A stretch of 64,000 bases of DNA from positions 32,001 to 96,000 of the forward strand of contig JBEIJY010000001.1 in the NCBI GenBank assembly GCA_040380025.1. Reading direction: 5' to 3'. A program made the position numbers and the translations under genes. The notes under the pieces were generated by a model. That model worked only from the letters and a program-made list of their open reading frames with translations, had not been told where the DNA came from and did not search any database. Of the stretch, positions 4,782 to 64,000 are shown one piece after another (the stretch's first letter is position 1; each line of letters begins with the position of its first letter). Source of the DNA: Bdellovibrionales bacterium. GTDB taxonomy: Bacteria; Bdellovibrionota; UBA1018; CAIMNF01.

Positions 4782-5647
4782 AATGTATCGCGATCCAACC
4801 GCAGAAGACTCCACTCCCGCTCCACCGCCCAGGGCTCGAGCTTTTCGCCCTGTTTCGCGAAGGTGATCCTTCGTGCTTCTTCGGTGGACCAGGTCACGCG
4901 GGTCGGATCCAAGATGACCTCGCTCTGGCCTGGAGCAAAGCGCTCAAGCCAGTCCCAGGCAAGCTCCATATCAGGGGTCGAATAGCGGATCCCCTCCTGC
5001 TCGTCTTTCGCCCAAGATTTTCCGGCAAAAAGAACTCGCACAATTCCGACTTTCTTTCCGGTCAGGGGACCACCCACGAGTTCCCTCGGAGCGACCACCG
5101 AGCGGATCCACTCGGAAGGCGTCGCCTTCCGTCCGAGCGCAAGATTCAAAAAATGCGCCCCCATCTCGGCACATCCCGCGCCCTCGCCCTTCAAGATGCG
5201 ATGTCCGCCTCCGTAATGGCGGTGACTGCCATGCAGAATCCACTCATTCAGCTCATCGAACAAAAGATGCGCACGCTCCGGGGTGAGATCCACCCGCAGG
5301 GATTTCAGCCGCCCTCTGCTCCGCGCGTCCTTCAGCTTCCTCAGCGCAGGGATTCCCTCGTCCAATTTGCCCGGAAAATCATGAAAAAACGCCCCGAGTC
5401 CGACCCGCTCCGAGATCACCTTCAGCGTCGAAAGATTCGGACTCCGGCGCGACATGCCCGTAAGGATGTGGCTTGCGCCGTTCTTCCAGGGCGTTTCGGA
5501 CTTCAATTCGATGTAAAAATGCCCGATCGGAGCGGAGTCGCGGATGAGATGGTGCCAAAGCGTATCCTGGAGAAGCCTCGAGGGACTCTCCCAGCCGAGC
5601 GGACGGGGCGGAGGAATCACATGAAGCTTGAACCAGGTTCCGCTCAT
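4778..5647 (-). CDS. Hypothetical protein, possible circularly permuted papain-like (His-before-Cys) enzyme
   Basis: ATGA overlap with the prmA stop; motifs IGHFYIEL and GEGAGCAE. Confidence 0.7.
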   Translation of the reverse strand: MSGTWFKLHVIPPPRPLGWESPSRLLQDTLWHHLIRDSAPIGHFYIELKSETPWKNGASHILTGMSRRSPNLSTLKVISERVGLGAFFHDFPGKLDEGIPALRKLKDARSRGRLKSLRVDLTPERAHLLFDELNEWILHGSHRHYGGGHRILKGEGAGCAEMGAHFLNLALGRKATPSEWIRSVVAPRELVGGPLTGKKVGIVRVLFAGKSWAKDEQEGIRYSTPDMELAWDWLERFAPGQSEVILDPTRVTWSTEEARRITFAKQGEKLEPWAVEREWSLLRLDRDTF

Positions 5648-58673: not shown

Positions 58674-60104
58674 ATGATCATGACACCGACTTTTTCTCTG
58701 ACTTTTTTTCTGCGCGGAACCGTTTCGTTTTTCGTGGCATTCGCCGCATTCACCGGCACCATCGCTTTCAGCACCATGATTGCTTCTGGCACGGCGGTCG
58801 CGTCTCCGGAGGGCTCCGGATTCCGGCCGAAGCCGTTCGTGTTTCGCGACGGACAAGCGGTATTCGCCGACTTTACCGAGGCCCGCTACGAGATCACCTA
58901 CGACCTGAACCGCTCGATCGCACGGGCCAAAGCGCGAATCGCATTCGAGCTTGGGGAAGAGGGCTACCCGGTCTTTGATTCCGTCACCGCCCCGGATTCG
59001 ATTGTGCTCGACGGAACCCCGGTCCAAGCGATCGAGACCCGCACCCCCTCGAACGAGACCACCCTGCGGGTCATTGCAAAAAAGGCGAGTCCGGGCGCGC
59101 ACCGGCTCGAAATCGACCTGCCTCTTGTGAGCCTCGTGAAGTTCGGGCAGGACGGGGTCCGGAGCGCCTTCTGGACCTCCGACCTCGACGAGCGTAACTT
59201 TCTGGAGCGTTACCTGCCCTCGAATCTTGAATATGACCAGGTCAAAATGAACTTTGTTGTCCGGTTTGCGGGACTCAGGCAAGAGCAGTTGATTTACACG
59301 AACGGGCAGGTCCAGCGCATTGATGCCGGCACATACTCCATCGACTTTCCCGCACACTTCACTTCCTCGAGCATCTTCTTTCATACGACCCCGAAGGGCT
59401 CGACGCTCGAGCGCTCCTTCCAGATTCGCTCGATCGATGGGCGGGTGCTGCCGGTCATGATCTACTCGGCCTATTCGGCCTTGGGGTCCCCGCTCGATGG
59501 TCTGCAAAACCGGGTCACGAAGGTGATTGCCGAGCTCGAAGCGGCTTACGGCCCCTTTCCGCATCCTTCCGTTCTGGTTCTGAACGCCGGCATGGGCGGC
59601 ATGGAATACTGCGGAGCCACGATGACCGATGTGAGCTCGGTCGGGCATGAGCTGTTCCATTCGTACTTTGCTCGCGGGGTAATGCCCGCAAACGGCAATG
59701 CGGGATGGATTGATGAGGCCCTCGCTTCTTGGCGCGACAACGGCTACCCGAGTTCTTCTTCGTTCTCGGGCGGGTCTTCGATGTCGTCCCACCCCTACTA
59801 CACGCGAATCACCGATCGCGCGGCCTACAGCTTCGGCGCGCGCTTCATGAGCTACCTCGACTGGAAAACCCGCGACAAAGGCGGACTGAAGCCGTTCTTG
59901 AAGTTCATGGTTCAAACCCAAACCTTCCGACCATTTCTGATCGAGGAATTCATCGCAGAAATGAGCCGTTTCTACGGTGTTGGTTTCGACGGGGACTTCC
60001 AGCGCCACACCTTCAGCACCGGACGCTCGCTCCAGGAAATGGCACGCGACGAAGAGGCCCCGCACCCGAAGATGAGCCTCGAAGAGCTCGAACGGCTCCT
60101 TTAG
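58674..60104 (+). CDS. Secreted M1-family (gluzincin) aminopeptidase
   Basis: Hydrophobic N-terminus; GGMEY; HELFH-X18-E. Confidence 0.88.
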   Translation: MIMTPTFSLTFFLRGTVSFFVAFAAFTGTIAFSTMIASGTAVASPEGSGFRPKPFVFRDGQAVFADFTEARYEITYDLNRSIARAKARIAFELGEEGYPVFDSVTAPDSIVLDGTPVQAIETRTPSNETTLRVIAKKASPGAHRLEIDLPLVSLVKFGQDGVRSAFWTSDLDERNFLERYLPSNLEYDQVKMNFVVRFAGLRQEQLIYTNGQVQRIDAGTYSIDFPAHFTSSSIFFHTTPKGSTLERSFQIRSIDGRVLPVMIYSAYSALGSPLDGLQNRVTKVIAELEAAYGPFPHPSVLVLNAGMGGMEYCGATMTDVSSVGHELFHSYFARGVMPANGNAGWIDEALASWRDNGYPSSSSFSGGSSMSSHPYYTRITDRAAYSFGARFMSYLDWKTRDKGGLKPFLKFMVQTQTFRPFLIEEFIAEMSRFYGVGFDGDFQRHTFSTGRSLQEMARDEEAPHPKMSLEELERLL

Positions 60105-62182: not shown

Positions 62183-62216
62183 AAGGTTTGGCGGAACATC
62201 ATTCGGGAGGAACAGC

Positions 62217-64000
62217 ATGCGCAAGCATTTTGTTGTGTTGGGTTTGGTCGTTTCTTTTTTCGTTTCATTCCAGGCGGAATCGGCTCCGCCTGAATTCAAA
62301 ATCTACGAGTACATCACTCAGCTGGTCTACCCCGAGGGCAGGGTCGATCTTCGCATCGAGATGCGAATCAGCACGGGCCGCGAGGATTTCGCGGACGAGT
62401 GCACGCTGTCGATCAAGAATAGTGCTTCGAACGAGTGGCTTCCGATCCACGACGAGAAGCTGATCCGGTTCTCGAAGGTCACCTACACGCGCGATCTCTC
62501 TCCCGGGGTGAAAGTCCGCGAATGGCTCATCGCGAGCCCCGCGGACGGAAACCCGAAAAACGTGCGGAATGATCTCGGAATCGCGTTCCAGGATTCCGAT
62601 CTCCGGCAGACCCAGCTTTATCGCCAGTCGCTGAAGTCCCGCATCGAAGATGAGTTCTCGGCCATCGCAAAAGGCGCAACGGCCCTTCCCGAGTCACCGC
62701 GGGCGACGGCGAAGGCTCCGGTCAAGACGAAGAACAGCATCCTTTTTTACGAAGGCGATCGCGAGTTCGCACTGACCTTCGAGAAAAACGACGCGGTTCT
62801 GTCTTCGTCGGACGGCAAGTCTGTCCGCTTTGCCAAAGAGGGCGTCTCGCTGAACTCCCTGCACCACATCGAAGATGGCATTTTGTATCTGACCGGCACC
62901 GCCCGGATTTTCGACCTGCGGATGTTCGATGCCGAGGTTTCGTTCATCGGAAACACCACACTCACGAATTCGGTGCAACGGGCCGATGGCGGCATGGCCG
63001 AACCCGAAACGGAATTCAACCGTTTGTATCCGGACCTCGTGAAGAAGGAACGCGAACTGATCGAGAAGAAGCTTGCGGCTCCCATGACCGAGGAGGCGAG
63101 CGAGACCGTGCTCCGGATTGCGCGCTCCCTTCGATTGAACAAGAGCGTGAAGCTTTTGGGCCCTGCCGGAAGCGGCAAGACCTCCGAGATGAAGGCCCTC
63201 GCGCGCCTGATCGCGGCCGGGAAAATCCCCTCGATTCCGCGGACGGCGCAGATCCGCGTGATCTCGTTGAACTCCCTTGCCTCGGGCACGAAGTACGTGG
63301 GCGAAATCGAGCAAAAAATCGCCGTGATTCTGGAATACGCGAGCACTGCCCGGCCGATCCTCCTGATCGACGAGTTCCATGTCGCTTCGGGGGTCGGCGT
63401 GAGCCAGGGGAACCCGAACAACATCGCGCAGGCCCTGAAGCCGTATCTCGAGGACGGCTCGCTCCGCATGGTCGGGATCTCGACGAATCAGGAGTGGGAC
63501 AATGCGTTTGCGAACGACGCAGCCTTCGACCAGCGTTTTGAGGAAGTCACCCATGCCGAACCGAAGGGCGAAGAACTCCGCCAGAAGGTGCGGAACTCGT
63601 TTGTGCTCCGGGGCCTCCCCGTTCCGGGCCCTGATGCCATCGAGCGCGCGATTGTGCTTTCGGATCGCTTTGCGATCAGCGGCGCACAACCCAGAAAAGC
63701 CGTGAACTTGCTCATCAAAGCGACCGGCATCATGGACGAGATGGGACAAGTGGGCGCGCCCGCGAATGTTCAGTCGGTCGAGAGTGCCGCCGTCGAGAGC
63801 TACCAGATCGATCCGACCGCGTTCGACCGCGCGAAAATCCAGGAGCGACTCGCGAACATGCGCCAGGTGCTCGAAAGCCAGATCGTGGGCCAGCGCGAAG
63901 CGATCGAAAAGATGAGCCAGGTGTGGTTCCGGAAGCTCACCGGCGTGGGCTCGAGCCAGACCGCGAATGCGATTCTGTTCTTCGGCCCCCCCGGCACCGG
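62217..64000 (+). CDS. Signal-peptide-bearing ClpA/ClpB-like double AAA+ ATPase (3'-truncated; not in the ORF track)
   Basis: RBS GGGAGG; frame open to the window end; MRKHFVVLGLVVSFFVSFQAESA; GPAGSGKT, SGTKYVGE, LIDEFH, LKPYL, QRF, IVGQREAI, FFGPPGTG. Confidence 0.88.
   Translation, partial: MRKHFVVLGLVVSFFVSFQAESAPPEFKIYEYITQLVYPEGRVDLRIEMRISTGREDFADECTLSIKNSASNEWLPIHDEKLIRFSKVTYTRDLSPGVKVREWLIASPADGNPKNVRNDLGIAFQDSDLRQTQLYRQSLKSRIEDEFSAIAKGATALPESPRATAKAPVKTKNSILFYEGDREFALTFEKNDAVLSSSDGKSVRFAKEGVSLNSLHHIEDGILYLTGTARIFDLRMFDAEVSFIGNTTLTNSVQRADGGMAEPETEFNRLYPDLVKKERELIEKKLAAPMTEEASETVLRIARSLRLNKSVKLLGPAGSGKTSEMKALARLIAAGKIPSIPRTAQIRVISLNSLASGTKYVGEIEQKIAVILEYASTARPILLIDEFHVASGVGVSQGNPNNIAQALKPYLEDGSLRMVGISTNQEWDNAFANDAAFDQRFEEVTHAEPKGEELRQKVRNSFVLRGLPVPGPDAIERAIVLSDRFAISGAQPRKAVNLLIKATGIMDEMGQVGAPANVQSVESAAVESYQIDPTAFDRAKIQERLANMRQVLESQIVGQREAIEKMSQVWFRKLTGVGSSQTANAILFFGPPGT

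Follow-up and report, generated by a model that had tools for sequence, protein, structure and literature searches.

A probable Sec-exported branch of ClpA/ClpC-type Hsp100 ATPases in Bdellovibrio-like bacteria

The 64,000-nucleotide stretch of Bdellovibrionales DNA analyzed here (the window; contig JBEIJY010000001.1 of assembly GCA_040380025.1, G000:C1:32001-96000 in our coordinates) ends inside a plus-strand gene for an AAA+ protein, named P0001, which is 876 aa long in the genome and of which the window holds the 5' part only. We think it reasonably likely that P0001 is a Sec-exported member of an undescribed, single-origin branch of ClpA/ClpC-type Hsp100 ATPases, so far seen in Bdellovibrio-like (predatory-type) bacteria. 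The protein consists, in order, of a signal-like N-terminus, two beta-rich domains and a ClpA-type body of two AAA+ modules, D1 and D2. As far as sequence can tell, the branch is new among Clp/Hsp100 proteins in its likely location, in its N-domains and in the missing pore loop of one ring. An earlier note on the window, made from its letters alone, had already described a Clp/Hsp100-type double AAA+ protein with a Sec-type signal and without the Clp N-domain (Clp_N), and this description stands, with the signal recognized by a heuristic and conserved in homologs. The features of P0001 are listed below; pLDDT is the predicted local distance difference test score of the structural model.

62205-62210, plus strand: Shine-Dalgarno-like GGGAGG, six bases ahead of the ATG at 62217
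62217, plus strand: in-frame ATG, start of P0001, read from the sequence
62217..62282, plus strand: signal-peptide-like segment, residues 1-22, from sequence, alignment and heuristic score
62295..62666, plus strand: N1 domain, beta-rich, residues 27-150, from the predicted model, block pLDDT mostly 85-94
62736..62951, plus strand: N2 domain, beta module, residues 174-245, from the predicted model, pLDDT 85-95
63102..63851, plus strand: D1, first AAA+ module, residues ~296-545, Pfam AAA, pLDDT >90
63159-63182, plus strand: D1 Walker A, GPAGSGKT, from G315
63285-63305, plus strand: D1 pore-1 loop, GTKYVGE, residues 357-363
63366-63380, plus strand: D1 Walker B, IDEFH, residues 384-388
63534-63536, plus strand: D1 Arg finger R440, in QRF 439-441
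63852..64000, plus strand: D1-D2 linker and start of D2, with IVGQREAI (556-563) and, at the window's end, GPPGT
Beyond the window: D2 sites Walker A K596, Walker B D646-E647, sensor-1 N696, LGY loop 711-713, Arg finger R749, sensor-2 R811 and C859

The N-terminus of P0001 reads MRKH + FVVLGLVVSFFVSF + QAESA, in agreement with the earlier reading of MRKH, a hydrophobic core and AESA: a basic MRKH is followed by a hydrophobic core of 14-15 residues and then by QAES|A. Sec-type signal peptides (those cut by signal peptidase I) were recognized by a basic n-region, a core of ~7-15 residues, small residues at positions -3 and -1 and an early mature part that is net negative or neutral, and P0001 has all of these traits, as judged by this in-house heuristic only and by no standard predictor. 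The likeliest cleavage site according to the heuristic is A-E-S|A, before residue 22, which is favored because Pro follows the later Ala. In the full-length predicted model residues 1-22 have pLDDT <50 and lie outside the fold.

The start codon itself matters for this reading. As the earlier note had it, the open reading frame (ORF) has no stop in the window and is preceded by a strong ribosome-binding site; the plus-strand frame stays open from 61956 to the window's end. The next Met after the start is M49, and an alignment of orthologs has invariant columns already at F5, G9 and K28. Five of six orthologs start at the aligned position with M-R/G-K/I/A and then a hydrophobic run, while the start of the sixth (P0004) was called further upstream and the same run is present. 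GTG and TTG codons occur at residues 7, 8 and 10, but they belong to the hydrophobic run, and none is preceded by a separate Shine-Dalgarno site. Because the ortholog starts align and invariant columns precede M49, translation does not begin at an internal Met, a possibility which the earlier note had raised against its own reading.

To place this N-terminus in a family we used an exhaustive search of 1.84 billion representatives, which gave 16,285 matches at E<=0.001. The family analysis set consists of P0001 and 155 of the best matches listed, all with at least 149 bits; the genome's own ClpA-like protein and ClpB score 131 and 129 bits against P0001. The N-termini of these 156 sequences (50%-identity clusters) were sorted with our own heuristic, separately for sequences with a shortened D2, described below, and with the canonical long D2.

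Complete N-terminus, short D2 (n=127): signal peptide 86; hydrophobic run from residue 1-2, 13; other hydrophobic 7; none 21
Complete N-terminus, canonical long D2 (n=17): signal peptide 1; run 0; other hydrophobic 1; none 15
Complete N-terminus, odd D2 length (n=2): signal peptide 1; run 0; other hydrophobic 0; none 1
N-terminally partial sequences (n=10): signal peptide 0; run 0; other hydrophobic 0; none 10

A signal-like N-terminus is therefore found beyond chance, in 99 of 127 family members (86 + 13) compared with one of 17 canonical relatives, and the lack of a signal in homologs, also considered by the earlier note, was not what we saw. A signal-type N-terminus is likewise present in all 17 members inspected from genomes and in 8/8 of a further set. 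The two traits of the family, the D2 deletion and the signal-type N-terminus, travel together.

The hydrophobic run, present in 106 of the 127 members, has a core with a median of 14 residues (quartiles 12-17; at least 20 in 10 members). Net flank charge across the 106 is +1.45 on the N-side of the run and -0.64 on the C-side; the N-side carries the more positive charge in 85 of them and the less positive one in 8, with no difference in 13, and three of the 106 have plausible lipoboxes. This pattern reads as the signature of Sec signal peptides and would place the ATPase modules outside the cytoplasm, beyond the inner membrane, whether or not the segment is cleaved. The polarity fits an uncleaved signal-anchor as well as a cleaved signal, and P0001 could accordingly remain attached to the inner membrane, as a membrane-bound machine whose ATPase rings face the periplasm. 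This alternative, which the earlier note had also named, gains from the cores of at least 20 residues in 10 of the 106 members and from the best -3/-1 site of P0001, A-E-S|A, which is no textbook A-x-A, with Pro following the later Ala. We nevertheless judge it unlikely, and less likely than cleavage, because a membrane span would normally be longer than the median core of 14 residues; moreover, a small-residue -3/-1 site directly follows the core in 99 of 127 members, the lipoboxes in a few members mean processing, and the sequence of the segment varies even among close orthologs, as expected if it is removed.

Another possibility is that P0001 stays cytoplasmic, held at the inner membrane face by a tether of opposite orientation or by a peripheral helix, and uses cytoplasmic ATP, perhaps together with the cell's own ClpP. 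The problem of an ATP source outside the cytoplasm would then disappear. Against this stand the positive-inside rule, since the flanks carry +1.45 and -0.64 and the opposite polarity occurs in only 8/106, and cores that are too short for a span; together with the findings on ClpP given below, they make a cytoplasmic P0001 very unlikely in our view.

The AAA+ motor of P0001 is well preserved. Across an alignment of 82 members, which have only 21-39% identity to P0001 outside its own ortholog group, K321, K596 and R749 are invariant and D385, E386, T423, R440, D646, E647, N696 and R811 are at least 90% conserved. This set covers residues for hydrolysis and inter-subunit activation, beyond nucleotide binding, and both ATPase sites appear intact across the family. 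An exported protein may in principle keep such motifs for folding or for scarce nucleotide and act as a holdase, scaffold or binding protein without ATP turnover. That the periplasm is regarded as free of ATP speaks for this, as does the paralog encoded downstream, P0002, which has itself lost Walker B, sensor-1 and the Arg finger. The conservation of the Walker B Glu, sensor-1, both Arg fingers and sensor-2, invariant or at least 90% at 21-39% identity, argues the other way, and P0002 shows the pattern of decay to be expected once hydrolysis is unneeded; we find a protein without turnover improbable. Since every hydrolysis residue is under selection, an exported P0001 would have to work where ATP is available.

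The two rings differ in their pore loops. In D1, the pore-loop position 360 is aromatic in 92 of 136 members (70 Tyr, 15 Phe, 7 Trp). In D2, the GYVG pore-1 loop is deleted across the family, and P0001 has no G[YF]VG there. From the D2 Walker A Lys to the Walker B Asp there are 50 residues in P0001, compared with 63 for the ClpA and 66 for the ClpB of the same genome; the segment that carries GAPPGYVG in ClpA, ClpB and ClpC is 13-16 residues shorter in the family, and in an alignment to E. coli ClpA the gap falls precisely at GAPPGYVGF. This short D2 form is present in 136 of the 156 sequences examined. P0001 thus has aromatic pore-1 loops not in both rings, as is the rule for class-I Clp/Hsp100 proteins, but in D1 only. 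Judged from these motifs, D1 seems to be a functional ring that grips substrate, and D2 a functional ATPase ring that is unable to grip in the usual way.

In other respects P0001 is built as a class-I Clp/Hsp100 protein, with two tandem AAA+ modules that each have Walker A and B, sensor-1 and an Arg finger. The motifs that the earlier note gave for the first module (GPAGSGKT at 63159, GTKYVGE, IDEFH, QRF) and for the start of the second were all found in place. Pfam places AAA over two stretches and AAA_2 on D2. The two Walker A motifs lie 275 residues apart in P0001, compared with 291 in the ClpA-like protein and 400 in the ClpB of the same genome, which bears out the earlier statement that P0001 is without the ClpB middle domain or coiled coil. 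The full-length model has a mean pLDDT of 87.2 and a predicted template modeling score (pTM) of 0.76, and its best structural matches are ClpA in ClpAP (7uiv, E 3.7e-34, target-normalized template modeling score 0.72) and ClpC in ClpCP (9gi1); subunits of ClpB hexamers are matched as well.

The part between signal and AAA body does not resemble that of other Clp proteins. Whereas canonical Clp relatives from the family search start with an EHLLLGLL-type Clp_N, no Clp_N was found in P0001 among 25 of the 33 Pfam families that matched it, and the N-terminal 300 residues are predicted to fold as two beta domains (27-150 and 174-245) linked by a disordered stretch. The earlier note had counted about 240 aa of unrecognized sequence here; no convincing known fold was indeed found, and the part is longer, ~270 aa (residues 23 to ~295), with two beta domains. 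N1 is specific to the close ortholog group, being common to the six orthologs and partly to P0013. A Foldseek search with the N-terminal region had no match at E<=0.001, and the best VIA Z for N1 is ~5. N2 is common to the wider family and ends in a conserved R-x-x-D-L-x-x-F-D-A-E motif; its best fold match in a wide VIA search, with Z 6.1 over 65 residues, is a generic propeller-blade likeness rated at commonplace level. Family alignments to P0001 begin at ~residue 195-217, and two residues, D233 and E240, do not vary among 26 sequences. The six orthologs, 871-884 aa long, came from a search with residues 1-300 alone and have 42-56% identity in this region.

Near the other end of the protein, C859 (L002 ~4791-4793; L002 covers C1:92001-108000, and a position on it is the window position minus 60000) is the P0001 copy of a single Cys found 5-20 residues before the C-terminal end of 101 of 105 aligned members, and present in P0002 too. 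It often stands in a C-x-x-L-F/L context, and no other Cys is conserved in the family. In an exported protein such a Cys could form an inter-subunit disulfide or serve as a redox switch. A few members (L025-L027) have no C-terminal Cys and end in YYNYYN-like tails.

ClpA and ClpC are the closest relatives by several measures. ClpA is the best sequence match in PDB (138 bits), and NCBIfam ranks ClpA first, followed by ClpV and ClpB, all far under the cut-offs: TIGR02639 (ClpA) reaches 175.6 bits of 993.15 and NF008263 128.9 of 1350, TIGR03345 (ClpV/TssH) 144.9 of 884.95 and TIGR03346 (ClpB) 139.7 of 1232.1. Like ClpA and ClpC, P0001 has two AAA+ modules without the ClpB middle domain and a KY-type pore loop in D1. 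Unlike them, it has a signal peptide, two unrelated beta domains in place of Clp_N, a deleted D2 GYVG loop, DYR instead of GAR at sensor-2 and a conserved C-terminal Cys, and its genome has no exported ClpP. A quick maximum-likelihood tree of the AAA+ core, computed from 54 of 126 short-gap sequences (50 random and four from P0001's ortholog group) and 20 long-gap sequences, sets the short-gap family apart by one branch, with a Shimodaira-Hasegawa-like approximate likelihood ratio (SH-aLRT) of 88. P0142, which keeps the long D2 segment, sits at the base of the canonical group in this tree and may be an intermediate form.

Named records of the family are metagenome-assembled genomes (MAGs) of Bdellovibrionales and Bdellovibrionia, annotated just 'AAA family ATPase'; an organism name was available for three of 30 clusters looked up, and our genome survey was confined to Bdellovibrionota. 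In that survey the family profile scored at least 468 bits in 21 of 301 sampled phylum genomes, our source genome included, compared with ~360-400 for ordinary ClpA. Eight matches fetched from the tier below 468 bits were all signal-bearing relatives, which gives ~29-31 carriers among the 301, depending on two further genomes from the genus to which three of these eight belong. The earlier note had suggested counting signal-bearing AAA+ paralogs, and within the source genome there are two, P0001 and P0002. The family member P0013 (G027:C2, L018) carries the NCBI label 'Xanthomonadaceae bacterium', and its genome was placed in the order of the window's genome; the label is probably wrong. Two of the eight signal-bearing relatives below 468 bits, L040 (G111:C108) and L041 (G098:C5), are ~1,440-1,460 aa long and have three P-loops (e.g. 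at 287, 549 and 904).

Searches of other kinds added little. A metagenome scan found one contig-end fragment, covering residues 5-57, without downstream context, and ESM Atlas had only generic AAA clusters of 600-690 aa. The single locus from a pattern scan of genome contigs, in a Clostridium MAG with 37% identity over residues 308-454, is probably an ordinary Clp. PADLOC matched P0001 only weakly and partially in the AAA core (DolB 49.7 bits, IetA ~35 bits).

A hydrophobic-Gly-aromatic loop lies ~12 residues past the D2 sensor-1 (TTNAG), at the ClpP-docking position of ClpA and ClpC, and is considered flexible because of its low confidence in the predicted model. The earlier note had proposed looking for an IGF loop; a loop does exist at the ClpA position, and it reads LGY in P0001, IGF in four orthologs and VGF in two, and VGF in P0002. 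The ClpA-like protein of the same genome carries VGF there, and IGF, LGF or MGF occurs in ClpC-like relatives. Across the family an IGF-type motif is present in 56 and missing from 80 of 136 members, a distribution which suggests that the loop goes back to an ancestor coupled to ClpP and has since disappeared from most lineages while persisting in some. Only one canonical ClpP is encoded in the genome, without a signal and in a clpP-clpX operon, and we found no exported ClpP in it; a second ClpP-like match (C9, 31 bits) was ruled out as a partner, being a membrane-anchored SppA-type peptidase. Complex prediction with D2 residues 545-876 and two copies of the genome's ClpP scored 0.09 against a mark of 0.32, in a run without controls. 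The retained loop in 56/136 members and in the orthologs, and the one canonical cytoplasmic ClpP, would suit the cytoplasmic reading considered above, whereas the loss of the motif in 80/136 and the deletion of the D2 pore loop that feeds ClpP in ClpA oppose it.

Following the gene beyond the window gave its 3' end at L002 4847 (G000:C1:96847), completing the 876 aa, and the downstream gene.

L002 4844-5917 (G000:C1:96844-97917), plus strand: P0002, 357 aa, overlapping the P0001 stop by ATGA

P0002 begins with a textbook signal, …AVAVLIGALVLSQGALA|QTPEE, and is 27% identical to the linker and D2 of P0001 in an alignment of 343 residues. It retains the P-loop (GPEGTGKT), the C-terminal Cys and, as RTPVGFRT, the VGF loop. 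The DE of Walker B is replaced by SG and the TN of sensor-1 by HE, and an Arg finger is missing. When the 8,000 best word-sharing candidates among proteins of 196-625 aa were scored, we found no homolog of P0002 besides itself, and a P0002-like gene is absent beside five more distant family members; P0002 thus appears to be a local, degenerate, D2-only duplicate with a signal. The overlap, the shared signal and the paralogy lead us to infer co-assembly: P0002 probably joins or regulates the P0001 complex in this lineage.

The source genome is 2.35 Mb in 53 contigs and 98% complete. With a GC content of 0.60 and a third-position GC content (GC3) of 0.77, the P0001 gene is similar to its neighbors metG and clpB, and since GC3 is similar it looks native and not freshly acquired. 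A promoter and terminator scan gave nothing beyond chance level. In a comparison with two same-genus genomes, metG alone is shared and neither flank is conserved. Opposite the AAA+ gene, an antisense ORF at window 62694-63998 on the minus strand spans at least 434 aa within the window and 716 aa in the genome; such frames are typical of GC-rich coding DNA, and we did not count it as a gene. Upstream of metG, a plus-strand ORF of 476 aa at window 58674-60104 has a long hydrophobic N-terminus and an HELFH (HExxH-type) motif and is probably an exported or membrane zinc peptidase. Past P0002, an ORF of 323 aa at L002 5929-6900 is signal-bearing and without a family match, and a gene at L002 6995-7966 on the minus strand (G000:C1:98995-99966) encodes a predicted lipoprotein of 323 aa (…MFMVSAC…) without a Pfam, NCBIfam or PADLOC match; with GC 0.46 and GC3 0.54, compared with 0.58 for the genome, this gene looks foreign.

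We found no paper on exported bacterial AAA+ or Clp proteins among open-access papers and bioRxiv, and the words AAA, Clp, ATPase and signal peptide are absent from the main text of a comparative-genomics paper on Bdellovibrionota (PMC11656739). The earlier note took Clp ATPases to be cytoplasmic; for bacteria we found nothing to the contrary, but eukaryotes have exported relatives according to PMC6550532 (HSP101) and PMC4320221 (torsinA). Plasmodium HSP101 sits on the PTEX pore in the parasitophorous vacuole and, driven by ATP, unfolds proteins and threads them into the host cell, as described in part of PMC6550532. It is the only known kind of exported Hsp100 motor that we found for comparison and is the nearest functional parallel: a class-I Hsp100 outside the cytoplasm of the producing cell, in a parasite-in-host compartment that parallels predator-in-prey. 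HSP101 differs in being ClpB-type with a middle domain, eukaryotic and equipped with the partners PTEX150 and EXP2 (same passages), while no conserved partner was found for P0001. By sequence HSP101 (6e10/6e11) is no closer to P0001 than other Hsp100s, with 105 bits against 138 for ClpA.

Torsins are not known to have aromatic pore loops; they have functionally important cysteines near sensor-2 and are activated by catalytically dead AAA-like partners. These traits may be likened to the D2 without a pore loop, C859 and the degenerate paralog P0002. Torsins are, like P0001 as proposed, Clp-related AAA+ proteins in an extracytoplasmic-type compartment, torsinA being localized to the endoplasmic reticulum (ER; from part of PMC4320221). 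Unlike P0001 they have a single AAA module and are eukaryotic, and the ER lumen imports ATP; the torsin family is absent among the 25 of 33 matched Pfam families. A bacterial precedent for combining a signal peptide with a need for ATP is Lig E of Gram-negative bacteria, which always has a signal peptide and whose ATP source is discussed as an open problem in the portion consulted of a preprint (bioRxiv 10.64898/2026.03.22.713542), so that the same question arises. Lig E is unrelated in fold and chemistry and, on the same source, uses one ATP per ligation with a sub-micromolar to micromolar Km, whereas an AAA+ motor burns ATP continuously.

How might an exported P0001 work? The chain would cross by Sec unfolded and its signal would be cut, and the mature protein would assemble into a double-ring hexamer outside the cytoplasm. 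There D1 would grip and pull polypeptide, and D2, without gripping substrate itself, would use ATP to serve as an assembly or power ring. A predator would most plausibly obtain this ATP from its prey, at the predator-prey interface or inside prey, where P0001 may remodel or unfold proteins, e.g. exposing them to secreted proteases. Routes across the outer membrane exist, since the genome has five secretin genes. A TLC/NTT nucleotide transporter (PF03219) gave no match in the genome, in a search whose control matched nothing in any genome.

Several points weigh against an exported motor of a single-origin family. The heuristic gave 'none' for 21 of 127 family members and 'other hydrophobic' for 7; among the 21, P0012 and P0033 are signal-like by eye and P0014 and P0022 seem truncated just before a conserved F-x-F-x-N-G motif, so that some of them look like miscalled starts. 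Support of the tree branch for a single origin is moderate. That any Hsp100 can thread with a D2 lacking its pore-1 loop is an assumption. The gene is accessory, being found in ~10% of sampled phylum genomes and in just two of 16 other species of the window's own genus, and several single-contig phylum genomes that are 99-100% complete have a ClpA-level match only; the family therefore cannot be core predation machinery. No neighbor gene recurs in at least three of 17 family loci, with no hint of a partner, pore or secretion system, and neither a type VI secretion system gene nor a defense partner gene recurs beside family members there. AAA+ motors usually need far more than nanomolar ATP. 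A review describes the periplasm as being without ATP (part of PMC7391070), and measured extracellular ATP is nanomolar according to the consulted portion of the Lig E preprint (bioRxiv 10.64898/2026.03.22.713542). At such levels an ATP source has to be assumed.

The earlier note had gone further and suggested an effector acting in prey cytoplasm. We found no direct evidence for this, and the gene is not found in most sampled phylum genomes, including fully assembled ones. A broader form of the idea, which we regard as doubtful, is that exported Hsp100 motors of predators run on prey ATP, either as a PTEX-like interface engine that unfolds predator proteins and pushes them across the prey inner membrane or as a 'Trojan' unfoldase that, once inside the prey, strips its proteins for digestion. 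In the 'Trojan' version, members that keep an IGF-type loop might dock onto prey ClpP and produce an unregulated shredder. Should either version prove true, it would be the first known case of a machine that uses ATP to unfold proteins outside the bacterial cytoplasm.

Database labels of family members such as 'AAA family ATPase', 'ClpA' and even 'RarA' hide the family from view. For Hsp100 mechanics the family amounts to a natural experiment, a motor of two rings in which D2, the main one, has kept its ATPase but not the loop that grips substrate. In the textbook view, work outside the inner membrane is powered from the cytoplasm, the periplasm having no ATP. A large family of signal-bearing Clp-type ATPases, maintained by selection and with intact hydrolysis residues, would either contradict this view or indicate an ATP-rich destination such as prey.

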